Of a stretch of DNA of 64,000 nucleotides, positions 25,000 to 59,381 are shown piece by piece. The stretch spans positions 800,001 through 864,000 of the forward strand of contig OY970067.1 in the NCBI GenBank assembly GCA_963705305.1. The letters run 5' to 3'. The notes beneath the pieces are model-generated. The model was not told the DNA's origin. It ran no database searches and saw only the letters and a program-made list of their open reading frames with translations. This DNA is from an uncultured Methylomirabilota bacterium. Lineage in GTDB: Bacteria; Methylomirabilota; Methylomirabilia; Methylomirabilales; 2-02-FULL-66-22. Every line of letters starts with the position of its first letter. Positions within the stretch are counted from its first letter, which is position 1. Made by a program: the position numbers and the translations under genes.

Positions 25000-25183
25000 C
25001 CCACACCCCCTCGCGGGTCGCCTCTCCGCCCGCGGAGCTGCCGCCGGACGTGTCCTCCGTGCGCCCGGAACCGCCGGGAGGCCGGACGCCTCGCCCGTCG
25101 GGTCGAGGCGGCCAAGCATCGCGCGGGCGGTTTTGCGGTGTCAAGGCCAAAGCCGGACCGCACCGGCCGCCGCCCGGGGCGGC

Positions 25184-43229: not shown

Positions 43230-43274
43230 GGTGGGCGAAGGTGGTTTCGAACCACCGACCCACTGCTTGTAAGG
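43230..43274 (-). tRNA. 3' half of tRNA-Val(TAC); probable att site, not an intact tRNA
   Basis: Minus strand CCTTACAAGCAGTGGGTCGGTGGTTCGAAACCACCTTCGCCCACC gives anticodon loop, T arm and acceptor 3' strand. D arm and 5' acceptor strand are absent. Confidence 0.85.
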
Positions 43275-43391
43275 TAAAGCCAGAGCTTTCAGTCTCTTAC
43301 CGGATATTCCAGAATACTCAATGTTGTCAGGGAATTATGCGTTTACCCTTTCAGCCTGCTCAACCCCAATTTGGCCTGTTTTGGGCGCTCG

Positions 43392-43413
43392 TGTTTGCCA
43401 GATGTTTGCCAGA
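43392..43413. repeat. tandem 11-bp repeat TGTTTGCCAGA x2; candidate integrase arm-type site
   Basis: Exact tandem duplicate about 120 bp inside the tRNA fragment. Confidence 0.55.
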
Positions 43414-43610
43414 AATTTCGCCTGAGATGGGCGCACGCTCCTATTCGAACGCTCAGCGTGAGCCGCGCCGTTTCTCAGGCATCGGCTCCACGCGTTCGTT
43501 CGGCCCGTGTCAGTCATTGCACCTGTCCAAACGCCCTCTGCGAATCTCTATTTTGCTCGGCCTTTTCCTGTTCTTTAGACCGACCAGATGTGAGATTAGC
43601 CAATTCGTGG

Positions 43611-44624
43611 TTACGTCTTCAAGTGTGCAAAGTGCCTCTTCATTGTGCGCCGCGACGTCATTTCGAGAAACGCGGTTACATTGCTGAACTCCGGCCCGAC
43701 AGGCTCGGTGGCTTTGCCATCCGGAGTAACCAACCAGTACCAGTAATAGGTCCCGCCTCCCCAGAAGTAGCGGTGTTGCTGAACGACCAAATACCCCTCA
43801 AACTCGCCTGAGGCGACGACGTTCAGGGTAATCCCGGGACAAGTGAAGCTGACTTGACCCGTTCGAAAATCCAACCGGTGAATGGCGCCTGATGTAGCCC
43901 ACGCCTCGCTGAGGAAGAACAGGCTCACTCCGTCTGGTGAGAATTGAGGAGTCTGTAATCCCGCCAGGACCTTTTGCGGGTCTGAGTGTGCGGTACTTTG
44001 CACGAGACAGCGAGCGTTTCGCCCATCCACATCAACAATCCAGATGTCGTTCGCAACAGCCGCTCCGGCTCCCACATCTATCTTCGGACGCGCGCTGAAT
44101 AGCAAAAAGGCGACCTTCGTTCGGTCGGGAGAAAACGTAGGATGTGCGATCCGTCCATCAACCGAGATCTCGGTGCGGGCGTTGTCGACATTGGTCACGA
44201 AGAGACGTCCGTTTACCTCCGAAACCTCGGTTGCTCTTGGCAATTCCTTCTCGATAGGACGATTAACCTGATTCTCGTCGCATCTGGCGGATACAACGGG
44301 GAACGATACGTCCGTCGCGATCAGATCGGGGAGGGGGACGAGCTTCTGCATCTGTACAACCAAGGACCGCTTCCAGTATCGTACTTCCTCCGGCGTGAAT
44401 CCCTTCGATTGGCTCGTCGTGGAGTCGTACTCATCGTGATGCCGGAGGCACAACACAACAAGGTTGTCGTATCGGCTGTCATTTCGGTCTCTCGAAATAT
44501 GGGCAATCTGTACCTTCTTCGGACCATGGTCGCCGTCAAGAGAGAAGCACAGACAACAACGGCGTCGGCTTTCCACAAGAAGCCGTGTCTCAACATCCTT
44601 GTGAATGGATACTCGCTTCCGCAT
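43611..44624 (-). CDS. HNH-like nuclease domain fused to a TolB/PD40-like beta-propeller
   Basis: RRRCCLC...IAHI...NLVVLCLRHHDEYD, then PTFSPDRTKVAF, IWIVDVDG, PQFSPDG. Confidence 0.8.
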   Translation of the reverse strand: MRKRVSIHKDVETRLLVESRRRCCLCFSLDGDHGPKKVQIAHISRDRNDSRYDNLVVLCLRHHDEYDSTTSQSKGFTPEEVRYWKRSLVVQMQKLVPLPDLIATDVSFPVVSARCDENQVNRPIEKELPRATEVSEVNGRLFVTNVDNARTEISVDGRIAHPTFSPDRTKVAFLLFSARPKIDVGAGAAVANDIWIVDVDGRNARCLVQSTAHSDPQKVLAGLQTPQFSPDGVSLFFLSEAWATSGAIHRLDFRTGQVSFTCPGITLNVVASGEFEGYLVVQQHRYFWGGGTYYWYWLVTPDGKATEPVGPEFSNVTAFLEMTSRRTMKRHFAHLKT

Positions 44625-44874
44625 GCCGTTGTTCGTTCACTCAGCCGAGAGCAGCTTTAAGGACTAGCTCAAAGCTGCGGCGTCGTGAGACCGCGTATCC
44701 TCCCATTTGATTTCACCCAGAGCGCCGCGGGTTGAGGGACCCGGGAGAAACGAGACGTTGCCCATATTGAGGATGGGGGAAGCGAGCACGCCGCTTCAGC
44801 TTGCGCTTCAGCAAACTCCCAGATCCCTTGTCGCAGAAGGTCTTCAACCACAGAGGCGCCTCAAGTACTAGCAC

Positions 44875-44966
44875 CCCGCCGTGCCGCTGAGCCGCGGCGG
44901 GGAAACGGAGGCTTCAATCTAGTAAGCACGCGCATACCCGCCGACGGATCGAACGCCTTGTTGGGC
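44875..44966 (-). repeat. attC site 12 (degenerate, no GTT core)
   Basis: R'' GCCCAAC and internal inverted repeat present; R' end eroded. Confidence 0.6.
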
Positions 44967-44988
44967 AGCACCACCAAGTCCACGTCGC

Positions 44989-45510
44989 TCACTTCAAGAA
45001 CCTGACGAGATTGCCGAGCTGCCTGGTCCATTGTGCGAACGGGCTCTTTGGGTTCCTATCCGCAAACTCCCGGAACAAAGCAGCCGCTTCGTCGCGCATG
45101 AAACCGGGAGTCGTTTCAGGCGCCTTGTAGAAGGAAAGCTGCTCGCTCTTCTTCTCCCATTTCTGCACGATTTCCATGACCCCATCACCAGGCGACTCCA
45201 AACCATAGACGAGCCTTCCCAGATTCAGGTTCATGATCAAGCCGAAGCACATCATGCACGGCTCAAGAGTGACGTACACGCAGTGTTCCTGCCGCGCGGC
45301 GCGCTTGAGGTTGCAGATGGATGGGGCCGCAGCGCTTAAAACCCGGAACTCAGCGTGCGCGAGTAGGTTGCGGTCGCCGGCAACGCGATTGTGTGCTTCC
45401 TCTACCACGCGGTCGCCGGAGACCAGTACGGCGGCAATCGGAAGCTCCCCAAGTTCCAGCGCAGTTCGAGCGAGTTCAAGGGCTCGTCGCATGTGACGCT
45501 CGTCACTCAT
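44989..45510 (-). CDS. cassette 12: nucleoside/nucleotide deaminase (TadA-like fold)
   Basis: HAE and TLEPCMMC motifs. Confidence 0.9.
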   Translation of the reverse strand: MSDERHMRRALELARTALELGELPIAAVLVSGDRVVEEAHNRVAGDRNLLAHAEFRVLSAAAPSICNLKRAARQEHCVYVTLEPCMMCFGLIMNLNLGRLVYGLESPGDGVMEIVQKWEKKSEQLSFYKAPETTPGFMRDEAAALFREFADRNPKSPFAQWTRQLGNLVRFLK

Positions 45511-45539
45511 ATTCCCTCCGAGCTACATTTTGCTGTGCT

Positions 45540-45611
45540 GCCCAACGGGGCGGTGAGCAGCCGCGAGCGAGCGAATGCGAGCCCGCGGGCTGCTCGACTG
45601 CGAAGTTGGGA
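45540..45611 (-). repeat. attC site 11
   Basis: TCCCAAC...palindrome...GTTGGGC. Confidence 0.85.
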
Positions 45612-45617
45612 CGCGTT

Positions 45618-46220
45618 CTAGATGACAAATTCATACCTGACAGGTGCTGCGAGCTGCTGAGCGGCGCGATTCCAGGCCGCCACGCGGTCGGATTTCGGCC
45701 CCGCTGCAGCGAACTGATCGATCGACGCCTCGAGATCGTCGATGAGGCATACCGTCGAGACCGGCAACCAGAACCTACCGGCCTGGATCGAAGCGGCTGG
45801 TTCAAGGTGGGTCACAGGAATCTCACGACCCTCAACTTGGGTCAGAGCAACTCGCGGTCCCCTGTAACAGAGCCAGCCCAGGGACTCGCCCTTGCTGTTC
45901 GTGATGACCTTCGGATCGAACTCGTGCACGGAACCGCAGCGGTACATTTCGTAGATCTCTCCCGCCCGTTTGGCGTAGCGCCGGTCGATGCGCGACATCA
46001 CGTCGGTGAGGTAGTCGCGCGATCGCTGACCAACCTGTGCCTTGCCGGTGTAGAGGTGTCCCAGATGATCGACGTAGCTCAAGACCTCACGGCTGATCGC
46101 GAAGGGCGCGGCGCCAGTGGTCGCAAGAAGCGGCCGGATGTCGCCGTCCACGGTGCCCTTCAGACCCTGGAGGTATGGGCGTGCGTCCGCCCAAGCGGCG
46201 ATTATCGGAACGTCAGCCAC
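45618..46220 (-). CDS. cassette 11: hypothetical protein with Rx4H motif
   Basis: GGAGGAGG RBS, GTG start, YRCGSVHE. Confidence 0.8.
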   Translation of the reverse strand: MADVPIIAAWADARPYLQGLKGTVDGDIRPLLATTGAAPFAISREVLSYVDHLGHLYTGKAQVGQRSRDYLTDVMSRIDRRYAKRAGEIYEMYRCGSVHEFDPKVITNSKGESLGWLCYRGPRVALTQVEGREIPVTHLEPAASIQAGRFWLPVSTVCLIDDLEASIDQFAAAGPKSDRVAAWNRAAQQLAAPVRYEFVI

Positions 46221-46253
46221 GGCCTCCTCCCAGCCTCTTGAGCCTTGTTGTTG

Positions 46254-46315
46254 GCCCAACTTCCGGTTCAGCCGCCCCCGCTGTTTGCGGGACGGCTGGA
46301 ACCGGTGGGTTAGAC
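46254..46315 (-). repeat. attC site 10
   Basis: GTCTAAC...palindrome...GTTGGGC. Confidence 0.9.
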
Positions 46316-47038
46316 GCCTCCGTTCGAGCGGATCGCTTTGAGCGCAGAGATCAGTTCTGGTGCTACCTGTCGGACGAAAGCGACCTTGGCGTCGCTCACC
46401 GGCTCACCATGGACAGCAGGGGAAGCCACGGCATTTACCTCCCGCACTACATTGGCGAGGCGAGGATCGAGGAGACCTTCGTTTGCCAGCATACGGGTGA
46501 CGTGAAGGACAGGAATGGGCCGCCTTACCTCCTCTGCTTGGACGCGATCGGCCATGATGCGCCTGAGTTCCTTCTCAATATGATACCTGGCGCTGAAGAG
46601 AAAGGCGACGTCGTCTGAGACTGGAGGAATATCTGCTCTGGGCTGAGGGCGTTCGATGCCGTATTCTCGTAGCACCTCGGTCATCACACCGCGGAGCTGC
46701 CCTTCCAGTGCCGGGAGTTGTGAGTCGGGAGGTGGTGCAGGGGCATGGAATACTGGGTTAATCTGGGTGCGGACATCGACTGAACTGCGGATGTCGCTGC
46801 GGAGGCCAGATACCTCGTCTTTCAACTCCTTTATCTGCTGGTTCAACTTGAGACCGAAGAGATTCACTTCCTTGAACACCGGAGCGAGAAAGAGCGCGAC
46901 GAAAAGAAGGAGGACAACCAGGTCCATAGGAGCTGCCGTCCCGGAAGTAATGGCCGGCAATCTGAGGTAGAGAACCGACCCCGCGCTGGCGAGTAAGACC
47001 GCCCACCAAATCACCTTAAACCAGTTCGGGAAAACCAT
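46310..47038 (-). CDS. cassette 10: 2-TM protein with coiled coil and helical C-terminal domain
   Basis: Two hydrophobic helices; RYHIEKELRR...AVHGE; stop codon lies in R''. Confidence 0.82.
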   Translation of the reverse strand: MVFPNWFKVIWWAVLLASAGSVLYLRLPAITSGTAAPMDLVVLLLFVALFLAPVFKEVNLFGLKLNQQIKELKDEVSGLRSDIRSSVDVRTQINPVFHAPAPPPDSQLPALEGQLRGVMTEVLREYGIERPQPRADIPPVSDDVAFLFSARYHIEKELRRIMADRVQAEEVRRPIPVLHVTRMLANEGLLDPRLANVVREVNAVASPAVHGEPVSDAKVAFVRQVAPELISALKAIRSNGGV

Positions 47039-47063
47039 CAGACCAGTCCTTTTGCGTGCAGGC

Positions 47064-47153
47064 GCCTAACGCCACGTTGAGCCGCGCGGGGCACGAATAC
47101 AACAGGAAACCGCGCGCTGCTTCACCGCGTCGGCCTCGAACGCGAAGTTAGGC
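47064..47153 (-). repeat. attC site 9
   Basis: GCCTAAC...GTTAGGC with internal inverted repeat. Confidence 0.9.
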
Positions 47154-47162
47154 ATTTGCCTC

Positions 47163-47624
47163 TTAGTCGCCACGCTTTACGCGCTCCCATTCTGCCTTAA
47201 GTATCTTCTGGGTTTGTTGGATAACTGGCTCAGTCGCTTCATCCAGAATATTGGACAGGCCACGCTTTGTGTTTATGGCATTTAGTGCCTTTTTGCTCGC
47301 AGTAGACATTAGTGCAAGTAACTCTTGATGGTCCTTCTCGTTTGGATTAAGGAGTAGCTTTACTACTTGCTCCTTTAAAGTGATTTCCCCATGCTTCTCA
47401 ATTGCCTGTTCAACGGTGATTGCATCTGCTGAATACGCAGAGGGAACATGTTTGACCTCCTGTACAAAGCTTGCGATCTCGTTTCGTAAACGATTTATCC
47501 ACTCTTGCCGGTTTGCAGAGACAACCGACGATTTAATCTGTTTTCTTGCTACGTAAAGCGTAACAATTGGGCCAACTAATACTGCTACCAAAACAGTGAC
47601 TGCGCTGATAAGTGCTGTATTCAT
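47163..47624 (-). CDS. cassette 9: AT-rich single-TM helical hypothetical protein
   Basis: N-terminal TM segment, RQEWINRLR...LLLNP...LKAEWERVK. Confidence 0.85.
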   Translation of the reverse strand: MNTALISAVTVLVAVLVGPIVTLYVARKQIKSSVVSANRQEWINRLRNEIASFVQEVKHVPSAYSADAITVEQAIEKHGEITLKEQVVKLLLNPNEKDHQELLALMSTASKKALNAINTKRGLSNILDEATEPVIQQTQKILKAEWERVKRGD

Positions 47625-47632
47625 ATTCAAAT

Positions 47633-47710
47633 GCCTAACGTTGTGGCTAACCGGCGCGCGAAAGGGGGCGAAGCCGACTGAAGCGCGTCCGGTTGAGCCG
47701 CGTGTCAGGC
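47633..47710 (-). repeat. attC site 8 (variant R'' GCCTGAC)
   Basis: Palindrome ending GTTAGGC. Confidence 0.85.
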
Positions 47711-47738
47711 CCGACCGTGGTAGATGTCGGGCCTGAGC

Positions 47739-48083
47739 TTACTCTTGCCTGACTATATCGACCGAGATCTCCACCGCCGGAATCGTTCCTCTGTTCTCAA
47801 GCCAGTGTGTGGTGTTCCTATCCTCGGGCCAGCCCACTCCCGGCCCATAGTCCGTAGCGACTCCATTTCGATGGTCAGTGATTGTTCCTTGCAGTATGTA
47901 GACGGTGCCTGGTCTGTCTTTATGGTCGTGAATCGGGCCGAAGACGCCTCCAGGCTCGATAGTCACCATACGCATTCGAAGTTGGCGCCCTGCCATGCCC
48001 TCGATCTCAGGGCCAAGGTCAACTGTTGCAAGTAACTTCACCGTAACACCTTTCGTCTCAGGTGCCACCTGTTCGCTGCTCAT
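47739..48083 (-). CDS. cassette 8: cupin domain protein
   Basis: IEPGG..IHDH..PGTVYILQG...HWLENRG. Confidence 0.9.
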   Translation of the reverse strand: MSSEQVAPETKGVTVKLLATVDLGPEIEGMAGRQLRMRMVTIEPGGVFGPIHDHKDRPGTVYILQGTITDHRNGVATDYGPGVGWPEDRNTTHWLENRGTIPAVEISVDIVRQE

Positions 48084-48109
48084 CGTGCTCTTTTCTCTGT
48101 ACTTCCAGG

Positions 48110-48170
48110 GCCTAACGTTTGAGCTCAGTGGCGGCCCGTCAGGGCCGTCCACTGCAACGAATTGTAAGGC
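48110..48170 (-). repeat. attC site 7 (variant R'' GCCTTAC)
   Basis: Palindrome ending GTTAGGC. Confidence 0.85.
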
Positions 48171-48229
48171 AAACCGTTAAGAAGCATGACATATAAATGA
48201 CCACACGCGGGGCCGACAGCGGCGCCCAC

Positions 48230-48787
48230 CTAACCCACCAAAGAGTACACACCACCTGGAAGCTTCGACTGCATCATTTTCCTTCGATTCAACTTGCGCC
48301 CATCCACCACGAAGGTGCCATCACCAATTGCGTGTATGGTTCGCTTCTCTTTTCGTGAACTATCGAAGTACGCAGCGACGCCTTCGAGCACAACGATATT
48401 GTGCTTTTTGACGATATCGATAACTCTGCATTCGATATTTGCCAGGCATTCCTTAATCAGGGGCGACCTGACATGCTTTCCCTTCACAGGAGTTAGTCCA
48501 AACGTTTCACATTTGTCTGTGTCGGCGCCGGAACATGTTCCCACACCAACGACTTGATCAATTAGATCCACCGTGGGAATTGCAATTACGCATTCTTTAG
48601 ATTTCCTGAGTGCGGTGTAGGAATAGTTCCAGGGGCCTGTAGTTATGGCAAATATCGGCGTAAAGTCCACCACCATGGTCCATGATATAGTCATTATGTT
48701 GTTCTTCTCTCCATCATTTGTCGTAATGAAGACAACTGGGCCTGATTCCATCAAAGTGAATGCTTTGCTGATCTGCATCCTTTTCAT
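48230..48787 (-). CDS. cassette 7: flavin reductase family protein
   Basis: GPVVFITT, NIMTISW, GTCSGADTDK, PLIKECLANIEC. Confidence 0.9.
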   Translation of the reverse strand: MKRMQISKAFTLMESGPVVFITTNDGEKNNIMTISWTMVVDFTPIFAITTGPWNYSYTALRKSKECVIAIPTVDLIDQVVGVGTCSGADTDKCETFGLTPVKGKHVRSPLIKECLANIECRVIDIVKKHNIVVLEGVAAYFDSSRKEKRTIHAIGDGTFVVDGRKLNRRKMMQSKLPGGVYSLVG

Positions 48788-48809
48788 CGCCGCAGCCCTC
48801 ATACTGTTT

Positions 48810-48872
48810 GCCTAACGCCCCGCCTAACCCTTCGGCGCGATAGCGACGAGAGGGTTCAGGCGGTTGTTCGCA
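48810..48872 (-). repeat. attC site 6
   Basis: TGCGAAC...palindrome...GTTAGGC. Confidence 0.85.
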
Positions 48873-48978
48873 TCCCGCTCGCCATGCGTCCAGCCAAAAG
48901 ATCGAAGGTCCAGCCCGGCTCCCTCTTGCCACAGAAGCCGGCGGCCGCGGACGGCGGGGAACCCTCACGCGCGTCCCG

Positions 48979-49419
48979 CTATTTCCGGCCCGCCGCCGCC
49001 AGGGTCTTGCCCAGCGCCTTGAGTTGCGCCGCCGCGGCCTTGTCGGGCCGGTTCTGCACCAGCACGGGCGCCGCCACCACCTTGAACCTGAATGTGGCGC
49101 AAATGCTCTTCACACTCTCCACCGCCTTCCCGCCGCCCCCGTGCGTGACGAAAATGCCGCATGGCTTGTCCGCCACCTGCCCCTGCGTTGGGTAGAACGA
49201 GCGGTCAAAGAAATCCTTCACGCCGCCCGCCATGTACGAGAAGTAGTCCGGGGTGCCTATCGCAATCGCATCGCAGGCGCGGAGGTCCTTCGGACCCGCT
49301 TGCAGACCTTCCTTGAGAATGGGCTCAGCGCCGCCCGCTTTCGCCCCCTCGGCCACGGCTTCCGCCGCCGCCTTCGTGTTCCCGCTCAAGGAGTGATACA
49401 CAATCAGCACTCTGGCCAC
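48979..49419 (-). CDS. cassette 6: flavodoxin/WrbA-like protein
   Basis: VYHSLSGNTKAAAEAV, GTPDYF, KDFFDR; GAGGAGG RBS. Confidence 0.9.
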   Translation of the reverse strand: MARVLIVYHSLSGNTKAAAEAVAEGAKAGGAEPILKEGLQAGPKDLRACDAIAIGTPDYFSYMAGGVKDFFDRSFYPTQGQVADKPCGIFVTHGGGGKAVESVKSICATFRFKVVAAPVLVQNRPDKAAAAQLKALGKTLAAAGRK

Positions 49420-49511
49420 ACTCGCACCCTCCTCTCGGTTTGCCGACACACCGCCCCTCTCCGCTTCGCCCCTCCTCCCTCCGCGTGTCCGCATTCTTCC
49501 TGCGCCTTCTC

Positions 49512-49569
49512 TGCCAACGTTTAGGGTGAGAGGCGCGTCCGCGCGTCCTTCTCAACCCGATGGTTAGAC
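49512..49569 (-). repeat. attC site 5
   Basis: GTCTAAC...palindrome...GTTGGCA. Confidence 0.88.
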
Positions 49570-49575
49570 CGTCAC

Positions 49576-50412
49576 TCAAGAAGCAACTGATTCAATCCAC
49601 CTGATCGCCTGATACACAGCGTCGTGCGCCCGTTCCGCGGCCCCCCGATCGACCGCTATTCTTTCCCCGTGCGCTAGGCGATTGCGTATCTCGCGTACAT
49701 ACCTGTCCCATGGCTGGTACACGTCATCGCGCTCGGTCAACCGACGACCAACTGCGAGCTGCAGAAGCTCCTTGCAACGGTCTTCGATTCGCCATATGCG
49801 CCGCAGTAGGTACTCGGACAGTTCGCTGTCGTACCGCTGCCCCAAGCGCTCGGCGAGAAAGCTTTCAATAAAAGTCTCGAAGGATACCGCGTAGTCAAAC
49901 AAGCCGGTTTTGTACAATCCGTTGCTCACTTGCGTGATAGCGCTATAGAAGTGAATATACCAGGTGGGCAGAGCTTCGATGTCGATGAGACCATAGATGA
50001 GCCAATTAACCCTTACGGGTTCAGACGTAAGCGATCGCCCAGGCCACATCGAGGACACCACTGTCATCTGATTGCCTTGCAGGAATACCTCCTTAGCCAC
50101 AATAGGCGAACCCACGGGCGTAAAGTACACTTTGCACGGAAAGTCGATCCGCCGGCTGAACTTCACCTCGGCCGCCGTCCCGGGGAGTAGCGCCAAACTC
50201 CCCCCTTCCGAATAGTTCGAGGCAGCGCCAAGGCGAACAAACTCGTTGCCCGAAAGGATCTGTTGATCGCGGGGCGACTCGACCGCGAACTTATGTTTGC
50301 ACTCGCAGTGCACGAAGACCTCTCCACCCTCCATTGATGACTGGAATCCCTCCTCTCCTGGGCGGCCCCTTCGACCACAAGAGCTACATTGTAGCGGCTC
50401 AATAAACATCAT
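49576..50412 (-). CDS. cassette 5: zinc ribbon, beta-rich middle and HEPN-like domain protein
   Basis: CSSC...CEC; C-terminal FETFIE...RNRLAH. Confidence 0.8.
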   Translation of the reverse strand: MMFIEPLQCSSCGRRGRPGEEGFQSSMEGGEVFVHCECKHKFAVESPRDQQILSGNEFVRLGAASNYSEGGSLALLPGTAAEVKFSRRIDFPCKVYFTPVGSPIVAKEVFLQGNQMTVVSSMWPGRSLTSEPVRVNWLIYGLIDIEALPTWYIHFYSAITQVSNGLYKTGLFDYAVSFETFIESFLAERLGQRYDSELSEYLLRRIWRIEDRCKELLQLAVGRRLTERDDVYQPWDRYVREIRNRLAHGERIAVDRGAAERAHDAVYQAIRWIESVAS

Positions 50413-50428
50413 GTCTCCGCCTGTTGGC

Positions 50429-50527
50429 GTCTAATGCTGCGCTTCACCCGCGGCCCGCCCGATTGAAACCGCAACCCGACGGAGTCGCGCGTCAGCGCGG
50501 GCCGTCGGGTGCAAGCGTGAGTTAGGT
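50429..50527 (-). repeat. attC site 4 (R' core ATTAGAC, G to A)
   Basis: ACCTAAC...long palindrome...ATTAGAC. Confidence 0.8.
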
Positions 50528-51244
50528 TGCCGTGTGGGCCTCTCGCTCGATCAAAGCCCGAGGGCCCACGAGGGCGAAGACGAATAGCGGCACTATCTTC
50601 CTTCCGCGCGGGGCGGCCAGCTGAGGCCCATCGTAGAAGGCGAGCTCCCACATCGATAGGGCTGGGCTGTCCTTGTTACGCGCGGCCGTGTAGACGAACC
50701 CACCATCCGCGTATCGTCGAATCACGGTGTACTCTAGCCCGCAACTCAGGAGGATGGGCCGAAGACCATCCCTCCCCTCCGGCGGAACCATCCCCACGCG
50801 GACGTCATAGTCTTTGGGGATGAAGGCCCGCCATTCGTGCCAGCTGAGCCCGCGCACAATGAGATCGAAGAGCTCCTCGAACTCCTCGCCGTGACCTGGA
50901 AACATCCCGCTAGGCAGGAGCAAACCGCTCGGCATCTCCCGCCAGATTGGTCGCATGCTATCGAACACGCTTCGGCGAAGGGCCGCATTCTTCGCAAGGC
51001 GGTTGGTCAGGGCCCGGGAGCTGATCTCCACCGCTACTGGATGGTCTGATGCCAGCGGGAGCAGCGCTGTGAACACCGTCTCGAGCCGACCCTTGCGGGA
51101 GTTGCAGGCATCGCACGCCGGGACCTGCGGGAGGTTTGCCCGCCGGCGCTCGGCGAAGAACTCACGGGCGATCACGTGATCCCGTCCAGTCGCGAGCGCC
51201 TCGACGCAGTACACGCAGATTTTACCCTTGTACTTCTTACTCAC
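50522..51244 (-). CDS. cassette 4: HNH endonuclease domain protein
   Basis: CVYC...DHV...VPACDACNSRK. Confidence 0.85.
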   Translation of the reverse strand: MSKKYKGKICVYCVEALATGRDHVIAREFFAERRRANLPQVPACDACNSRKGRLETVFTALLPLASDHPVAVEISSRALTNRLAKNAALRRSVFDSMRPIWREMPSGLLLPSGMFPGHGEEFEELFDLIVRGLSWHEWRAFIPKDYDVRVGMVPPEGRDGLRPILLSCGLEYTVIRRYADGGFVYTAARNKDSPALSMWELAFYDGPQLAAPRGRKIVPLFVFALVGPRALIEREAHTAT

Positions 51245-51268
51245 ATGGTGCCCTCGGTGCGATGTACA

Positions 51269-51379
51269 ACCTAACGTCGCGGCGCTCTGCTGCGGCGTTC
51301 GCTAATAACGGCGGCAGGCGGCCGCAGGCCGCCAGCCGCTTCCGCACCCAACGCCATCAGCAGCAGCGCCTCGTTAGAC
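51269..51379 (-). repeat. attC site 3
   Basis: GTCTAAC...GTTAGGT with internal inverted repeat. Confidence 0.88.
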
Positions 51380-51886
51380 ACCCTGCGGGCGAAGCTCAAG
51401 CTGCGAACGCTCACGGCCGGCACGTACCGCATCGGAATCTGCACGGGTCTGCTGGCCTTCAAGCAATTGCACGTAGGAGCTCGGCAAGCGATGCCACCGC
51501 GCCCCCGCGATTACCAGGTCCCGATACCAATCGTACGGTAGAATGTCGGCGCTGATCGACGTGGCCTTGTAGGTCGTGGCCTCAACCTCGGTGCCGTCAA
51601 TCTCGACAGTGACGGCGGAGCGTTCGTAACCCATCCCCGCGCCTTCAATCCTATCGAGAATTGGGAGCTTCGAGGCATCGAGTTCATATAAGATGCCAAA
51701 GACCTCGCTTCCATCTTTGCGAACGATGTCGCATTTGCCCGAGCCGTCCTCCGACCGCTTGTGCCAACGCAGTACGTACCCGCCCAGTCGGGCGACGCCG
51801 ATCGGGCGAACGCGGCCAACCCGGCATTCCAGGCGCGGCTGCCATAGATTCGAACCGTACGCGAAATAGTGCACCGAAAGGTCCAT
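51374..51886 (-). CDS. cassette 3: gamma-glutamylcyclotransferase family protein
   Basis: YFAYGSNL, LDRIEG, Y...GA...LP..Y. Confidence 0.9.
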   Translation of the reverse strand: MDLSVHYFAYGSNLWQPRLECRVGRVRPIGVARLGGYVLRWHKRSEDGSGKCDIVRKDGSEVFGILYELDASKLPILDRIEGAGMGYERSAVTVEIDGTEVEATTYKATSISADILPYDWYRDLVIAGARWHRLPSSYVQLLEGQQTRADSDAVRAGRERSQLELRPQGV

Positions 51887-51891
51887 GGTGT

Positions 51892-51954
51892 GTCTAACGT
51901 GCTTAATCAGCCGCCGGCCGCTCTTGGCCGGTCGGCTGCATTAAGGGGTTAGAT
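51892..51954 (-). repeat. attC site 2
   Basis: ATCTAAC...palindrome...GTTAGAC. Confidence 0.9.
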
Positions 51955-52841
51955 GGCTGTTGCGCGTTCATCCGCGAGGCCAAGAATTCCTCGTGTAGGT
52001 GTACGAGTCGTTGGACGCGCTCATGCAGGTCTGGAAGCTTTTCTGCAACGGCGTTTCCCGCGGGCCCGATAATCTCGGAGAAGAATTCACCAAGGGTGAC
52101 GATCGTTAGATGGGCTACGGTCGTTAGTAACTGGGGACGGGGCGGGTGCCACTCGAAATCCGGTAAGAACCCGTCATCCTCAGCCTCAAGGTGGTACTCA
52201 AGCAAGTCTCGCCAGTTCCCATGAACGGAATGAGACGGACCCGCGAACGCACCTAAGTACGCCTCCTCAAAGCCCACATCCTGCGCCTTCTCAAACAGGT
52301 TTTTTCCTGCCCAGTTCTTCGGCGGATCGATACGATCAAGATCCACGCCGGAATCTTTCGCTGATCTGTCGATAGAGGCCAGCATCCTTTTCTCGATCGG
52401 CCATACTTCACCGCCTCGCGCAGCGATATTCGCGCGAATCCTGTCGCGGAGCCGTTTCTCGTGCCCCATTGAATGTTCAATATAGGACTGTACGATCTCA
52501 GGCCGATCGTTCTTGATGAGGAACATCGTGTTCACGATGCATTCAAAAGCGAGCCGCGCAAAAATGAACGAAGTCTCTCGTCTGTGCTGACACGTTTGGT
52601 CCAGTAAAGCCGAAATAAGCTTGTATAAGCGGACCAGATGCCCTACCAGAACGGCCTCGTGTCGATTCCAAACCTTCCGTGCCGGCGGGACGATATTCGC
52701 GGCGATGCACACATATGAGCCTGCCTCAATCAAGAGCTCGACACTTAGGCCGATGTACTCGTGCTCGCTCTTGAAGGTGCGAACGACAGACGGGTCCACT
52801 TCGACCTTTTTGACCGCCGGTACGTTGCTAGAAACGGTCAT
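51903..52841 (-). CDS. cassette 2: helical hypothetical protein (DUF5677-like)
   Basis: ARLAFE and SHSVHG patterns; ORF reads into attC2. Confidence 0.75.
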   Translation of the reverse strand: MTVSSNVPAVKKVEVDPSVVRTFKSEHEYIGLSVELLIEAGSYVCIAANIVPPARKVWNRHEAVLVGHLVRLYKLISALLDQTCQHRRETSFIFARLAFECIVNTMFLIKNDRPEIVQSYIEHSMGHEKRLRDRIRANIAARGGEVWPIEKRMLASIDRSAKDSGVDLDRIDPPKNWAGKNLFEKAQDVGFEEAYLGAFAGPSHSVHGNWRDLLEYHLEAEDDGFLPDFEWHPPRPQLLTTVAHLTIVTLGEFFSEIIGPAGNAVAEKLPDLHERVQRLVHLHEEFLASRMNAQQPSNPLMQPTGQERPAAD

Positions 52842-52864
52842 GTTGCAGAGCCTGAATCACAGCC

Positions 52865-52927
52865 ATCTAACGGGAAGTTGAGCGGGAGCCCGCAGTATGG
52901 GCGATCCGCTCCAACACCTAGTTCGGC
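52865..52927 (-). repeat. attC site 1
   Basis: GCCGAAC...palindrome...GTTAGAT. Confidence 0.9.
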
Positions 52928-52929
52928 AA

Positions 52930-53241
52930 TCATCTTTTCTTGATCTCTTCCGAGGACGGAAAATCCTGGTATCCGGCGTACATCGCGTAGCCGACATAAT
53001 CCACGTATGGGACGAAGCCAACCCGATTGGCGTACGAGGAGAATCGACCTTTCCGCCATGACTTCTTGCTTAAGCACGTGATCAGCCGATTGTCACTCTT
53101 GATCTCGCCCAAGTACCATCCATCAGGTCCATAGACCTCGTCATCATGAAAATGGCCGACATGCTGACCGTCGTGGGTCCAGAGTTCGTCCCCGTCACGA
53201 TGGCCAAAGAAGGTGCCACCCCATGTCCACAGATGTTTCAT
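52930..53241 (-). CDS. cassette 1: small beta-hairpin repeat protein
   Basis: Repeats LWTWGGTFFG / LWTHDGQHVG / VYGPDGWYLG; GAGGAG RBS. Confidence 0.85.
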   Translation of the reverse strand: MKHLWTWGGTFFGHRDGDELWTHDGQHVGHFHDDEVYGPDGWYLGEIKSDNRLITCLSKKSWRKGRFSSYANRVGFVPYVDYVGYAMYAGYQDFPSSEEIKKR

Positions 53242-53259
53242 GTCGTCTCATCTCCTCTT

Positions 53260-53411
53260 GCCGAACAATGAGTAGGCTGTTTCAGCCTAGCACCCCAAAT
53301 GTGACTGCCTGTCAGCCTAGCGCCCCCAGGCCACATTGCCGCGACACCTGCCGTAGCGGACAGTTAGCATACGGGACTGGGGCGGGGATAATTATAGGCT
53401 GTTTCAGCCTA
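53260..53411 (-). other. candidate attI region
   Basis: GTTCGGC core at 53260-53266 is complementary to R'' of attC1. It is preceded by two copies of the palindrome TAGGCTG-N3-CAGCCTA (53273-53289, 53395-53411) and a partial copy near 53305-53320. Confidence 0.7.
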
Positions 53412-53429
53412 AACTGCCGGCTCAACCCC

Positions 53430-54590
53430 TGCAGGGCATCCATAAGGCTCCGGACCCCCAGCCCGCCCCGGTTGAGCACATGGGTGTAGATCATGGTCGT
53501 CTTGACATCCTTGTGGCCGAGGAGTTCCTGCACGGTCCGGAGGCCGGATCCCGCTTCCAGCAGGTGCGTGGCAAAGCAGTGCCGGAACGTGTGGCAGGTG
53601 GCACGCGCTGGACTCCCGGTCTTGCGCACCGCGGTCTGCACGGCCCGCTGGACGAGGGATTCATCGACATGATGGCGGCCCTGCTGGCCGGTGGCCGGAT
53701 TCCTCCAGTGCTGCTCCTGGGGAAAGACCCACTGCCAGCCCCACGTGGCAGTCGCATTCGGGTACTTCCGCGCCAAGGCGTAGGGCATGGCCACGCGCCC
53801 ATATCCCTCGGCGAGATCTCGCTGATGGATCTGGCGCACACGAGCGAGATGTTCCTGGAGCGGAGCCTTCAGGGCCTCGGGCAGCACCGTGCGCCGGTCC
53901 TGGAGCTCCTTTCCATCGCGGACCGTGATCTGACCGGCGGCGAGGTCGACCTCCTGCACCCGCAGGCGGAGTCACTCCAGCAGGCGGAGCCCCGCGCCGT
54001 AGGTGAGGCTGGCCATGAGCCACTTGTCGCCGGTCAGGTTCCCAAGGATGGCTTTCACTTCCGCGCGGGTGAGCACCACGGGGAGGGCGCTTCGGGCTCC
54101 GCGCCCGAACGACGTCCCCCAGGTTCCCGATCGGTCGGCCGAGAACATGGCGGTAGAGGAAGAGCAGCGCGCTGAGGGCCTGGTTCTGCGTCGAGGCGCT
54201 CACCTGCTCCTGTACGGCCAGATGCGTCAGGAAGGCGTTGATCTCGGGTTTGGCCATCTCGGCCGGGTGGCGGACATGGTGGAAGAAGATGAACCGCTTC
54301 ACCCAGTGGCAGTCGCTCTGCTCGGTCCGCGGGCTGTAGTGGCGGGCGCGCAGGGCCTCGCGCAGGCGGTCGAGGAGCTTGGGCTGACGACTGGGCGGGG
54401 GGGCACCGACAGGGGCGAGAACGAGCGGCGAGACGGTTACACCGGACGTCGAGAACACCCCTGAGGCTCGGGACGGCACTGCGGGCACGAGGCCAGAGGG
54501 GGGAGGGGGCTGCATGTGGGCTGGTGAGGGCGGGCGAACCGCGCCAGTGGCTCGATTCCGGTCCAGAACGCTGTCCTTGACCGCCGCCAT
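53430..54590 (-). pseudogene. intI: integron integrase, frameshift plus premature stop; ends approximate
   Basis: [36 protein letters not shown], IntI-specific ALARKYPNA...WQWVFP insertion, [28 protein letters not shown]. Extra C near 54087; TGA at 53972-53974. Confidence 0.93.
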
Positions 54591-54634: not shown

Positions 54635-54664
54635 AGCGTACCTCCAACGCGGGCCAGCTGTCAA
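54635..54664 (-). promoter_or_regulatory. candidate sigma70 promoter upstream of intI
   Basis: TTGACA-N18-TACGCT on the minus strand. Confidence 0.5.
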
Positions 54665-54704: not shown

Positions 54705-55005
54705 TCAGGTGGCGCTTTCAGGGTCGACGTTCTCGGTGGGCTTGGGTTCGGAGTCGGTGGCGGTCCTCGCACCGGAATTCGTCTTCCGCTCGACCGGGAC
54801 AGGCGCAGGGAGTGCCCGGGCTGCCAGTGCCTCAAACCGCGCCTCCTGCTCCTGGGCCAACGCCATCGTCCCGGCGATCTTCGCGTACACATCCACCGTC
54901 AACCCGATGGTGCTGTGGCCCGCCCGTTCCTGGGTGAGCTTGGGGTGGGTGCCCGCTTCGACATGGATACTGAAGCTCCGGTTAAAATCATGCTGCCGGA
55001 CCCCC
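54705..55005 (-). pseudogene. 3' remnant of a tyrosine integrase paralogous to 57173-58702
   Basis: RQHDFNRSF..HVEAGTHPKLTQERAGHSTIGLTVDVYAKIAGTMALAQEQEAR nearly matches the C-terminus of the intact integrase. Confidence 0.9.
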
Positions 55006-55255
55006 TATAACTGGCCTGCCCTCCGAACATTGGTCCAGTGGTAAAGTGGTGCTGTCAGAGCCTAAGCAAGGCGCAACGCGACTGCCTGTCTAGTGGCAGG
55101 ATCGAGAATATTATGCAGCATGTCCCTGAATTGGGTTCGCGTTAACCCAATTTTCAGATTCCCGTTGAGGCCCTCTACGTCATGAACGCGATTTTTGGCG
55201 CCAACCAAATATGCTCTGTCGGCTCTGCAACGAGCTATTCTTGATCAATCAAGAT

Positions 55256-56305
55256 CTAGCCCAACCACCCTTTCTCGTTGAGCGTTCGCCAGGCGAGCCG
55301 AATATGTTCGGGTCTCATCATGCGCCGTTTCCGCTCGTTCCAGGACTGTACTGCATGCACAGTATCTTCGGCATTTCTCGCCGCCTTATCGTGCCTTACG
55401 ATCCAGTGGACTGTTGCGAGAAGCTCCATTCCATAGGGTGACTCGAAACCTTCGATGAGATCTGTAACCCGCTGCATTCGGCCTTGGCTCTCCTTATAGC
55501 CTCCTTCACGCTTTTCAAGGAAAGCTTTGGCCTCTTCTGCGGTTTGCGGCAGCAATTGAATTCGAGTGTCTGGTTTATTCCTTCCATCACCGAAGCCCGA
55601 CGTGTAGTGCCCCTCAAAAAGATTCAACACATGGCGCAGGTTATCGGCATACGGGCCGTAAGTTCCCTTCTTAAATTCAAGTTTGAGCGGCTCACCTGCC
55701 TCCTGAAGAAAGTACAACAGCTTATGCACTTCTAGCAGCGTAAGTTCATAGCCCAGCACGCAATACTGAGCAAGGACAGTCAAGACACTTGCACGGCTTG
55801 GAGTCATATGTGGCCGTTCCGTCCGGTTCAACATTCGTGCAGCTTCAGGAGGAGACTGAGGCGGGTAGACGAACGCCTGAATTCCAGGAAGAGCCATGAG
55901 CGCCTTGTCAATTAGCGGGAACACATTCTCCCATTGCAGACCCCCATGCCCACAGCCCAATGGTGGTAGTGCAAGGGATCGAATATTACGGCGGCGAACT
56001 TCTTCAACCAAAGCATTCAACCCAATTTGAATATCAACTAAGCGCGAACGGCCTTTCCAATGCTTTTTGGTTGGAAAATTAATAATGTATCGAGGATTAG
56101 TAAGGGTGCGGCGCTCGAAGACATGCATCTGCCCTAACTTAACGTCACCGGCCTTACAAGCCGCCTTATACGCAGCAAACATGTCCGGGAATGCCTTCTT
56201 GAACTGAAGTGCTACGCCTTTCCCCATCACACCTTCAGTGTTGACGGTATTCACGAGAGCCTCGGCGTCTGCCTCCAGCAAATTGCCTTTCTTTAGTTCA
56301 ATCAT
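55256..56305 (-). CDS. darG: DarG antitoxin (macrodomain DNA ADP-ribosyl glycohydrolase)
   Basis: LVNTVNTEGVMGKGVALQFK, INFPTKKHW, PPLGCGHGGL, C-terminal KLLYFLQ...YGPYA...GFESPYGMELLATVHW. Confidence 0.95.
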   Translation of the reverse strand: MIELKKGNLLEADAEALVNTVNTEGVMGKGVALQFKKAFPDMFAAYKAACKAGDVKLGQMHVFERRTLTNPRYIINFPTKKHWKGRSRLVDIQIGLNALVEEVRRRNIRSLALPPLGCGHGGLQWENVFPLIDKALMALPGIQAFVYPPQSPPEAARMLNRTERPHMTPSRASVLTVLAQYCVLGYELTLLEVHKLLYFLQEAGEPLKLEFKKGTYGPYADNLRHVLNLFEGHYTSGFGDGRNKPDTRIQLLPQTAEEAKAFLEKREGGYKESQGRMQRVTDLIEGFESPYGMELLATVHWIVRHDKAARNAEDTVHAVQSWNERKRRMMRPEHIRLAWRTLNEKGWLG

Positions 56306-56317
56306 CGAAATCCCCCA

Positions 56318-56941
56318 TCAGTAGTACCAATCTGCCTTGACCGCCACAGGGGGGCAATACTGCTTTGTTTGCAGCATGCTGAGGACTTTTGCTTTCGCAT
56401 TGGTATTTAGCACGCCAATCCCTTGTACCCATTGCCAAGGGAAAAACTTATATACCAAGAATTCGGCTTGCTTTCGACGTTTGCGATCAATGTCGCCAGG
56501 ACGATCATGCCAGCTATTACTCTTGATTACATTCCAGTCCACATGGTTCAAATCCTCTACTTTCTCAAAAAAGTCTGTCATAGCTTGAACGGCGTGACCG
56601 TCAGTAAAGCACCACGCATCGGTTTGCTTGGCCACAGTCTCGACAGAAGAGGTCAGATGAATGACCTGTTCCTGCCCGCCAATGTATCCTTCTACGTAGC
56701 CAGTGTGAATTGCATAGAGCATGGGGCAGCGATTGGTGAAGTAGAAGGGAACGTAATCTGCCACCACCCCTCCCGGCGCGACCGGCACTTGCTTCTTCGC
56801 TCTCCTCTCTTTGATATGCGAATGGGCAATGCAGACGGGAGAGTTCCCTGCCGCCGCCATGATAGAATCGCATGCCAAGCCACCTGCTTTCAAGATGCTC
56901 GGCAGATTCTCTACATGAGTGATGTGGTAGATGGGCGGCAT
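56318..56941 (-). CDS. darT: DarT toxin (DUF4433 DNA ADP-ribosyltransferase)
   Basis: IYHITHVENL, DYVPFYF...PMLY, FTDGHA, RRKQAEFLV; directly upstream of darG. Confidence 0.95.
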   Translation of the reverse strand: MPPIYHITHVENLPSILKAGGLACDSIMAAAGNSPVCIAHSHIKERRAKKQVPVAPGGVVADYVPFYFTNRCPMLYAIHTGYVEGYIGGQEQVIHLTSSVETVAKQTDAWCFTDGHAVQAMTDFFEKVEDLNHVDWNVIKSNSWHDRPGDIDRKRRKQAEFLVYKFFPWQWVQGIGVLNTNAKAKVLSMLQTKQYCPPVAVKADWYY

Positions 56942-57086
56942 AGCCGACCGCAGAGCTGAAAAACATCAGACATCGGAATGAGACTCGTCGGCAGCAAGTC
57001 GCTGCCATACAACCGGAACGATCGGGGGAGCCCCGTGCATTCATAGAGGCAGAGCGTCTCCTGTTTGGGGCAGTTCCGTATCTGTG

Positions 57087-57116
57087 ATGTTACCCCAGAC
57101 AGGTTAGATGTGTCAA
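57087..57116 (-). promoter_or_regulatory. candidate sigma70 promoter for darTG
   Basis: TTGACA-N18-TAACAT on the minus strand. Confidence 0.6.
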
Positions 57117-57172
57117 GCATCCTTTGAGAATCAATGTCTTACCTCTGTTCTTGTCTCTCGTTACAGCACTTT

Positions 57173-58702: not shown

Positions 58703-59381
58703 GTCCGTTAACCTCCTCGTACAGCCCCGTCCCCATGCCCGCGTACGGGAGTGAGTGTCCCGTGTGCGTTCCCTGGAGCTATGTTCGTGTTATGCCTAAA
58801 GTCTGTCCGGTCCCGTTGGTGGGAATCCCAACGGTTGTGCTCGAAAAGAACAGCTTCCCTGTCGGTTCACCGCCAGGCGACTGTTCACGCTGATAGCCGC
58901 ATCGGCTTCGGAAAGGTCCCGCGGCGACCGCCCGCCCACCCGGTGCTTTTGGAGACCGGGATGACCGCGAGGACCTGCCGGAGTCGCAGAAGCGCGTTTT
59001 GGATCCCCACACCTTGCGAAGGTGGACCAAGATCCTGCGAGCACCCGTGACCCCCTTCCACCCCCGGGCGTCGCGCATCGGAACACGGCGGGATCGGGCG
59101 GGCGTTGTCCACCGCCATGAACTCATTGGCCAGGCTTCGCACGGCCGCGAGGCAGGTCTCGCGGGTCCGCTCGACCATCCCCCGGACGAGCATGTCGTTG
59201 TCCATACGTCCTAGGGGACGTAGTATCTTTAATTGCTTTATTTGGTCCGGGCGCTCCAACACACTTCATGGGCGCGACCAATGACGTTTCCGAGCGATCA
59301 ACGAATGTTGGGCTCCGGGTGTCAAACCGCGGAGGCGGGAGGACAGGCACGAGCCCGCCTGAAACATCAGGCGAGGGACGG

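Follow-up and report, generated by a model that had tools for sequence, protein, structure and literature searches.

A run of minus-strand genes separated by palindromic sites in the genome of an uncultured Methylomirabilota bacterium raises the question of whether these genes form a true integron, how such an array came to lie where it does, and whether it can still exchange cassettes. The stretch analysed, referred to here as the window, comprises 64,000 nucleotides (C1:800001-864000) of a one-contig genome of 5.65 Mb with a guanine-plus-cytosine (GC) content of 66%, and coordinates are those of the window unless prefixed. Homologues of the cyclophilin that flanks the insertion point to Methylomirabilota as the likely host: of three that carry an organism name, one (87%) belongs to Methylomirabilales and the others to Terriglobales and Binatia, and a further homologue, 88% identical, shares its cluster with a protein named from Candidatus Methylomirabilota. 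Between 43 and 59 kb of the window the GC content dips from 0.64-0.76 to 0.50-0.67. A first-pass annotation of the letters alone had read positions 44875-54590 as an inverted-integrase integron with 12 cassettes inside a tRNA-anchored island. The reading that we regard as very probable is that of a co-oriented integron of 13 cassettes with a broken integrase gene (intI). This integron was likely taken up at the integrase-att end of a tRNA-Val-type element, which later decayed, and its array is now likely frozen.

The boundaries of the units identify them as cassettes. Twelve minus-strand units, each with one open reading frame (ORF), run from 53241 to 44989, and each is followed by a site of 58-111 bp with R'' and L boxes, just where the first-pass annotation had placed them. 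The 5' core of each cassette matches the R'' of its own attC at 7/7 positions for cassettes 1-4, 9 and 12, and at 6/7 for cassettes 5 (the difference being at the crossover base), 6, 7, 8, 10 and 11, so that the pattern of matches first described proved exact. At the four variable core positions, 45/48 comparisons match, against a mean of 30.3 and a maximum of 43 in 100,000 draws of permuted pairings, and the control pairing of each R'' with its own downstream R' yields 30 matches; compared with the permutations, the 45 matches are the signature of inserted circles rather than of plain palindromes. From established integron biochemistry (PMC12614218 and PMC8618304; the literature is cited throughout from the available portions of each source), a once-intact IntI would have recombined each circular cassette, through its folded bottom strand, with the double-stranded attI at G|TT, and cassette 1 would be the newest and cassette 13 the oldest by order of capture. 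The bottom strands of the attC sites lie on the leading-strand template, as judged from a GC skew with its minimum at 1.28 Mb and its maximum at 4.14 Mb; the same orientation is given for 25/30 sedentary integrons in the portion of PMC5371416 available.

The sites were further assessed with a covariance model (R1) trained independently of the window on 28 attC sites of other genomes, which had been chosen by a strict geometric scanner and then aligned. In this training set 93% of the cells pair and 13/16 pairs change on both sides, figures that are descriptive and not a test because the sites had been chosen for pairing; as controls outside the training, the aadA1 site scores 57.2 bits and the aac(6')-Ib site 34.5 bits. 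Applied to the window with filters off, the model recovers 12/13 sites at 25.9-47.2 bits (E<=4e-4, the E-values of this model being rough), each best on the plus (bottom) strand, and the top match away from any site in the 64 kb reaches 13.1 bits. The claim that every cassette is followed by a palindromic attC therefore stands for 12 of the 13 sites and fails for attC12 (44966-44874), which has no GTT core, scores 15.6 bits (E 0.11) and folds no better than shuffles (z -0.6). Changed core triplets occur in three further sites (ATT in R' of attC4, TAC in R'' of attC7 and GAC in R'' of attC8), which brings the decayed attC cores to four. By itself the strict scanner detects just 2 sites within the array, where shuffled sequence gives 0.08 on average; a loose geometric scanner fired everywhere and is no test of specificity.

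The count of 12 cassettes was correct for the units first seen, and it missed a thirteenth (43450-44879) outside 44875-54590, whose ORF spans 44624-43611 and whose attC13 (43504-43444) scores 40.8 bits. The 5' core of this cassette is degraded to 3/7, and this loss, together with the missing GTT of attC12, indicates that a deletion likely fused cassettes 12 and 13.

The intI pseudogene (53432-54590, minus strand) begins with an ATG at 54590 and lies on the strand of the cassettes, with the array at its 3' end, as had been proposed; attI, with the G of its crossover at 53266, is found about 165 bp past the conserved end of intI, and intI, attI and all 13 attC-bounded cassettes share the minus strand. 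Read through its breaks, intI scores 317.8 bits against TIGR02249 (cut-off 265), with a further 109.6 for the 5' piece, and its C-terminal piece scores 253.6 for IntI against 84.2 for XerC and 72.7 for XerD. Its closest relative of solved structure is 2A3V (IntI4; E 2e-43), and the IntI-specific insertion, about 29 residues in comparison with the XerD-like protein of the host, is kept. The window IntI also groups with IntIs, apart from XerC/D, in two trees, which upholds its assignment as an integron integrase. The trees draw on a scan of named genomes for intI in which the best 80 loci among at least 600 rows were kept; the first holds 96 rows after removal of six that were short, a duplicate IntI1 and an outgroup fragment, and the second 49. 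This selection makes the set lean toward the window query, with marine and class 2/3 IntIs left out. The clade of the window comprises 31 rows in the first tree (Shimodaira-Hasegawa-like approximate likelihood ratio support 98) and 23 in the second (support 97/100), among them a Treponema metagenome-assembled genome (MAG), two other Spirochaetes, two Chlorobi, and Coriobacteriia, Desulfuromonas, Omnitrophota, Lentisphaeria and Nitrospirales rows; among the rows in the trees, the nearest to the window is G008, at 85%.

Orientation labels, derived from matches of model R1 in 100 sources (L139 and L140 left out), were obtained for 18 co-oriented and 17 divergent rows. All 11 labelled rows of the window clade are co-oriented, the Treponema and Chlorobi rows having no model match and thus no label, and the label requires 1-2 changes among the 35 labelled rows against about 12 on shuffles. 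The proposition that co-orientation is ancestral was rejected, since the root differs between the two trees. Within the host genus, an intI match is found in 13/20 genomes, and the layout is co-oriented in each of the six relatives that have attC matches near intI; a Candidatus Methylomirabilis MAG (L125) is divergent. As an observation from farther afield, plasmid 1 of Gemmatirosa kalamazoonensis carries a co-oriented integron with 15 similar attC matches (L057:9190-16459).

The locus is thus an integron of the published co-oriented ('reverse' or 'inverted') kind, a well-preserved and ordinary example. The first-pass annotation was right about the layout, and its description of a less-studied group needs amending, as the kind is published and common in the host genus. 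The co-oriented layout, including the Treponema type, is described in PMC3607928, PMC4889954 and PMC6557892; reverse integrons are reported from Treponema, Chlorobium, Blastopirellula and one Acinetobacter (PMC6557892, PMC3607928, PMC4909258), are named as a group in PMC3575428, are called paraphyletic in PMC4889954, and are mentioned beside archaeal IntIs in bioRxiv 2022.02.06.479319, all as far as the available text of these sources goes. A literature search on integrons and Methylomirabilota returned unrelated papers only.

The window integron resembles the reverse integrons of the Treponema denticola type in that intI is transcribed toward attI and the cassettes, with about 200 bp from intI to the first gene, in its S1/S2 core with two further boxes upstream that fit by position, and in an IntI clade shared with Treponema and Chlorobi rows. 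It differs from them in its short array, unrelated attC sites, broken integrase, position in a mobile-element remnant, likely Methylomirabilota host, and a distal duplicated attI module of which no description was found in the literature searched. Tn402 is the carrier of class 1 integrons. The window integron shares with the class 1 mobile integron the recombinase family (51% identity to IntI1), the attC structure, heterogeneous cassettes and a mobile carrier, as characterised in the available part of PMC3146285; class 1 integrons are divergent and carry resistance cargo, unlike the window integron, in which no resistance gene was recognised among the cassettes by family searches. Unlike a sedentary chromosomal integron, the locus is not shared with relatives and its attC sites have a median identity of 0.53; the genus has a shared lexA-linked locus elsewhere.

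Whether the integron still works depends foremost on intI. Its reading frame is disrupted by an extra base near 54085 and by an in-frame TGA at 53974-53972, both placed by alignment against G008 and G014, and conserved residues have drifted: 9 deviations are found at 108 columns conserved at 90%, the median of other rows being 3. It is conceivable, if highly improbable in our judgement, that intI is intact in the cell, that the breaks are assembly errors and that the integron remains active. The extra base falls in a homopolymer, a C run of a one-contig assembly, none of the short-read contigs compared covers either the frameshift or the TGA, and none of the catalytic R, K, H-x-x-R, H and Y is missing. 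The stop, however, is a substitution, and five of the nine drifted residues lie inside a short-read contig of run X1, possibly the source sample, that is identical over 53515-53822; moreover, four attC cores have decayed, and intI has likewise been lost from the two other integron platforms of the genome. A genome-wide search for an intact intI found none, and this, together with the broken intI and the four decayed cores, makes it likely that the cassette array is now frozen. The breaks liken the locus to pseudo-integrons (PMC2426708) and to clusters of attC sites lacking integron-integrases (CALINs; PMC4889954), as far as these are described in the available portions of the two sources, with a frameshift and a stop in intI and an array without its enzyme; it is not a CALIN by definition, because the whole intI sequence and attI remain. 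Pseudogenes make up nearly one third of intI genes according to the same portion of PMC2426708. Apart from the breaks, the IntIs of the clade carry unrelated N-terminal extensions: that of the window (54590-54380) is proline-rich, and those of G029 and G009 (L003, L022) appear to be an additional folded domain.

A candidate intI promoter was read by eye at 54635-54664 on the minus strand (TTGACA, 18 nt, TACGCT); similar hexamers lie upstream of intI in G020, G014 and G008, and the window sequence scores below the threshold of the consensus scan. The cassettes may be transcribed from a cassette promoter (Pc), not located, or by read-through from the intI promoter. No palindrome resembling a LexA operator was found near the window intI or attI. 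Elsewhere, an 18-bp palindrome overlaps the lexA promoter in this genome (G000), G005 and G020, and is a candidate LexA operator for the lineage.

The other platforms of this genome have fared no better. In three genomes of the genus (G004, G005 and G014; L042, L046 and L048) an intI lies a short way behind lexA; at the corresponding locus of this genome (C1:2496100-2498100) intI has been deleted, and an attI core remains with one cassette whose R'' matches the core and whose genes, by a family assignment read from sequence, are MazEF/PemK-like and toxin-antitoxin-like. A third co-oriented platform (C1:5451276-5453862; L054:6277-8863) retains a 3' fragment of intI, a three-box attI and attC sites, so that none of the three platforms has a working integrase. 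Scattered attC sites with no nearby intI were also seen (L055:8480-10816 and C1:2519051, 5397436 and 323636), one of them of the attC11 type, in a genome-wide search in which 150 of 3496 candidates were scored.

How the integron reached its present place is addressed by the surrounding 16.4-kb insertion, which separates tgpA (stop at 59382) from ppi (stop at 42972). Islands of tyrosine integrases that target tRNA genes generally combine an integrase, an excisionase function, arm-type repeats and a tRNA 3' half with lower GC content, defence cargo and absence from relatives, next to an intact target tRNA and between two att ends. In the insertion, a tyrosine integrase of 509 aa (57173-58702, minus strand) carries an N-terminal excisionase-like helix-turn-helix (HTH) and matches PF00589, PF12728, TIGR01764 and phrog_1 (E 3e-53). 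It is followed on the same strand by darT, the DNA ADP-ribosyltransferase toxin of a bacterial toxin-antitoxin and defence pair (56318-56941; NF048013, 263.9 bits against a cut-off of 150; PADLOC DarT), and by its antitoxin gene darG (55256-56305; NF048014, 465.1 bits against a cut-off of 250), and then by a remnant second copy of the integrase 3' end (54716-55004), 77.7% identical over 292 nt to 57172-57463. At the opposite side of the array, 33 nt after attC13, begin the tandem arm-type repeats of an att arm (43392-43411), and beyond them lies the 3' half of a tRNA-Val(TAC) gene (43231-43275), the att core, which lacks its 5' half and over 44 nt shows 97.7% identity with the intact gene, found 0.9 Mb away at C1:1744941-1745013. 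The remnant thus shares with islands of this type the integrase with its excisionase-like HTH, the arm repeats, the tRNA 3' half, the lower GC content, DarTG and the absence from relatives, and differs from them in that both an intact target tRNA and a second att end are missing; in relatives, too, the site has no tRNA. In three of five relatives (G005, G010 and G013), tgpA and ppi lie within 300 bp of each other with no tRNA between them and none of the insertion. The integron therefore does lie in the remains of a tyrosine-integrase element, as first suggested, and the notion of a tRNA anchor holds for the att arm and the tRNA-Val 3' half and not for a tRNA gene, of which ARAGORN finds none in the island. 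In its own right, the placement of darT-darG between two 78%-identical integrase 3' ends (54716-57173) looks as if it had arisen from recombination between related elements.

The case for cargo is made by homologous elements. Integrases 59-69% identical to that of the island occur in G024 (two) and G019, with the att arm and tRNA 3' half within about 200 nt, and the arrangement of integrase, arm and tRNA half recurs in 3/4 homologous loci; the arm of G024 is 65% identical to 43240-43411 over 177 nt. The integron fills the integrase-to-arm gap that is nearly empty in these related elements, which supports its status as cargo. The platform would have entered the short gap between the 3' end of the integrase and the att arm and travelled with the element, which would then have lost its tRNA-side end and come to lie between tgpA and ppi. 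On this account, the integron-bearing remnant is the displaced right end of a tRNA-type element and is unlikely to excise. Simple integration at a secondary site was rejected, as it would put the tRNA half at the inner left end of the element and not behind the arm.

It is improbable, though a good deal less so than an intact intI, that the integron was never cargo and that the integrase-DarTG module, the integron and the tRNA-Val remnant accumulated at tgpA-ppi independently of one another or were brought together by rearrangement or misassembly. At the tgpA-side end there is no second att junction (attL), no intact tRNA, no terminal repeat and no shared repeat longer than 10 nt. The genome has five tRNA-Val halves, several far from the gene; the duplicated 3' end of the integrase shows at least two events; and the contamination of the assembly is 6.5%. 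Against such an accidental assemblage, the integron occupies exactly the integrase-to-arm space that three homologous elements leave almost empty, 33 nt separate its last attC from the arm repeats, and three relatives have none of the insertion. The tRNA-Val neighbourhoods are not syntenic among relatives and give no trace of the origin of the tRNA half. The four further tRNA-Val(TAC) 3' halves lie at C1:1630029, 1634534, 4031066 and 4042568; two of the halves enclose a segment of 11.5 kb remote from the gene, and another integrase 3' remnant comes after one of them.

Beyond the uncovered breaks in intI and the unmarked tgpA-side end, several findings weigh against the captured and frozen integron that we favour. 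The relative L009 has 10 intI deviations, so that the 9 of the window are high yet not unique; the IntI of T. denticola itself and the marine IntI clades stand outside the trees; the empty site is seen in only 3/5 relatives, with tgpA next to ggt in G006 and tgpA and ppi apart in G020; no minus-strand promoter passed the consensus scan between 52800 and 55300; and the assignment of cassettes 4, 11 and 13 to defence rests on weak matches.

The attI site holds what is possibly a new feature of this locus. Its core (53260-53289, minus strand) comprises box C, an L box and the G|TT crossover at 53266, and matches the R'' of attC1 at 7/7 positions; applied to the first attC of 11 related loci, the same rule for placing the crossover gives 7/7 in 8, 6/7 in 2 and 5/7 in 1. 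Upstream of the crossover, one box is found at -22 to -25 and a second 30-33 bp farther. In the window, the boxes at 53289 and 53319, the latter being a middle box B (53312-53319) assigned by position, fit the direct repeats DR1 and DR2 by position; DR1 and DR2 are reported beside the attI simple site of T. denticola in the available part of PMC7691350. A distal box A (53395-53411) duplicates the 17-bp attI module exactly, 122 bp upstream of the proximal copy: the palindromic module at 53289 is repeated at 53411, and the two copies share the same diverged sequence at 17/17 positions.

By a test of self-similarity, a distal module copy better than shuffles (p<=0.05) is present in 14/26 clade loci, window included, in a set whose crossovers were judged by eye and which includes several related loci. 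The distal spacings are 77, 86, 90, 113, 122, 123, 123, 124, 133, 134, 134, 134, 135 and 136 bp, and thus mostly 122-124 or 133-136 bp. This test replaced a box position matrix derived from 12 clade loci, which had missed the boxes of the window. The matrix had detected at least two boxes downstream of intI in 16/31 clade loci (12 of the 31 were its seeds, and 5/19 non-seeds passed), and in 0/25 other rows and 0/38 divergent-clade rows; two boxes also appear in 4/38 regions upstream of divergent-clade loci. Helical phasing of the distal module is suggestive and not sharp, with a Rayleigh p of 0.004 at 10.5 bp and values under 0.04 for every period examined between 9.5 and 12.5. The motif is found across phyla and is similar to the GTTRRRY box, which makes IntI the likely binder of the module. 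No description of the distal module was found in the literature searched, outside which stand Coleman 2004, Boucher 2007 and the supplements of PMC4889954 and PMC7691350; attI diversity and regulation are treated in PMC3146285, PMC8876359 and PMC9024848, the covered portions of which do not contain it, and the covered portion of PMC9024848 calls attI sites outside class 1 poorly described.

A far-reaching interpretation, which we put forward as speculative and rather unlikely, is that the attI of the clade would be extended to about 160 bp, with a second IntI-binding module behind the intI stop, 122-124 or 133-136 bp upstream of the core module, that co-varies with the core, and would form a looped recombination complex like that of a phage attP and unlike the compact attI1; the platform of the genus would also move back and forth between a chromosomal home linked to lexA and islands of the tRNA type, all copies in this genome being switched off. 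There is an even chance that the distal 17-bp copy is instead an operator of a promoter or an old local duplication, and not an accessory site for recombination. Such an origin would accord with the 12/26 loci that have no significant distal copy, with the breadth of the phasing signal across periods of 9.5-12.5, with the failure of a matrix built from relatives to detect the boxes of the window and with the kinship of many of the loci; it is harder to reconcile with a copy that is kept in Chlorobi, Omnitrophota, Desulfuromonas, Lentisphaerota and host-genus rows at two preferred spacings that differ by one helical turn, and with the identical diverged sequence of the two copies in the window. 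The aligned attI regions of the clade, with crossovers checked in 11 loci, provide a ready test of the need of reverse integrons for a distal, helically phased IntI site.

The cassettes, all on the minus strand and numbered from attI, each contain one uninterrupted ORF, the length of which was compared with relatives for cassettes 8, 11 and 13 only. Cassette 6 (48816-49517; attC6 48872-48810, 26.3 bits) is flavodoxin/FMN reductase-like (PF03358), cassette 7 (48116-48815; attC7 48170-48110, 47.2 bits) is flavin reductase-like (PF01613), and cassette 3 (51275-51897; attC3 51379-51269, 30.4 bits) is gamma-glutamylcyclotransferase-like (PF13772, PF06094). Cassette 8 (47639-48115; attC8 47710-47633, 39.6 bits) encodes a cupin (PF07883), cassette 12 (44880-45545) a nucleoside deaminase-like protein (PF14437, PF00383) and cassette 2 (51898-52870; attC2 51954-51892, 46.4 bits) a DUF5677 protein (PF18928). 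Cassette 1 (52871-53265; attC1 52927-52865, 29.0 bits) has an ORF of 103 aa and cassette 10 (46260-47069; attC10 46315-46254, 32.6 bits) one of 242 aa with a hydrophobic N-terminus, neither with a family match; cassette 9 (47070-47638; attC9 47153-47064, 43.4 bits) holds an unknown ORF, and cassettes 1, 9, 10 and 11 yielded nothing beyond weak or unnamed family matches. Cassette 5 (49518-50434; attC5 49569-49512, 25.9 bits), with an unknown ORF of 278 aa, has a weak Abi match and a sub-threshold DUF4145 lead, and its fold predicted without an alignment is poor, at a predicted local distance difference test score (pLDDT) of 37; in Atlas, cassettes 5 and 11 fall into unnamed clusters.

Cassette 4 (50435-51274; attC4 50527-50429, 43.3 bits) is predicted to be HNH-like from weak PHROG HNH and PADLOC PtuB matches (E about 1e-4). 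Cassette 13, whose 5' cassette end is lost, encodes a protein of 337 aa that is HNH-like, again by weak matches, and carries PD40; its ORF has full-length homologues at 71-73%, and co-oriented attC matches accompany 8 of the 39 related metagenome loci searched out of 47 fetched, nearly all of which match the HNH part only and two pairs of which look redundant. Cassette 11 (45546-46259; attC11 45611-45540, 30.8 bits) encodes 200 aa and is predicted to be a HEPN-like RNase with an R-x4-H motif. Its family has 114 matches of about 200 aa, with R94 and H99 invariant in 54 aligned homologues, and its predicted structure reaches a pLDDT of 92.8; the top five rows in VIA are HEPN-type and weak (Z 5.3-5.6, root-mean-square deviation 3.7-5.7), Foldseek gave no match at E<=0.001, and no Pfam family was assigned. 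The cassette genes may have been kept as fixed accessory cargo, part of it for redox or stress metabolism and part probably anti-phage, the latter comprising DarTG beside the array and the HNH-like, HEPN-like and deaminase cassettes. That cassettes can carry defence genes is known, and anti-phage screens have succeeded in Vibrio, as the available text of bioRxiv 2024.07.02.601686 relates; the unnamed families of cassettes 5, 11 and 13 are candidates for such screens.

Comparison of cassette DNA with 250 other genomes of the phylum, two candidates being scored per genome, and with contigs of read runs demonstrates that cassettes 5 and 8 move as units. Cassette 8 recurs at 93-98% identity in four same-genus genomes (G006, G013, G009 and G010), from G|TT to G|TT and with different flanks, and at 95% in one further genome of the class; it stands first behind an attI of the same type in G009, behind an attC in G010, and behind an attI-like sequence, as judged by eye, in G006. 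Its R'' reads AAC in all four same-genus copies and GAC in the window, and it is intact also in contigs of runs X2-X4. For cassette 5, a 2105-nt contig of run X2 holds exactly 49516-50434 with 15 differences and other flanks. No copy moving as a unit was found for the remaining 11 cassettes in the phylum genomes or read-run contigs. A very short cassette-like unit with no ORF was also noticed after attI or cassette 8 in G005, G004 and G010 (L001:1300-1480, L002, L146).

These copies bear on the source of the cassettes, which the first-pass annotation had sought in many donors. In keeping with that idea, the attC sequences are mutually unrelated and cassette GC ranges from 0.47 to 0.67; at odds with it, cassette 8 and the attC11 type circulate in the host phylum. 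That the cassettes came mainly from a pool within the phylum and habitat of the host, and not from many distant donors, is a serious possibility that we nevertheless rate somewhat below even. The recurrence of cassette 8 in the genus and class speaks for such a pool, as do the attC11 type, found at 88-97% in 12 genomes of family f9 with other genes ahead of it in the 11 loci inspected, and the presence of cassettes 5 and 8 in sediment runs. It is opposed by the lack, with two candidates scored per genome, of any match to the other cassettes in the 250 genomes beyond a 73% DNA match for the cassette 7 gene, and by the GC content of 0.47-0.49 of cassettes 7 and 9 in a host of 66% GC.

As a record, the locus is a clean one of the probable course of a reverse integron, carried by a mobile island into a phylum that has seen little study, then frozen and decaying, and two of its cassettes are caught as free-moving units; it widens the known range of such integrons and changes no concept. 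Rfam gave no match anywhere in the window, and ARAGORN calls an 87-nt tRNA-Gly(GCC) at 25145-25231 that may be false, a 76-nt version being present elsewhere in the genome. An AT-rich motif at 59205-59240 has similar copies at C1:2328516, 4383316, 4391808 and 4799075, and is possibly a regulator site.

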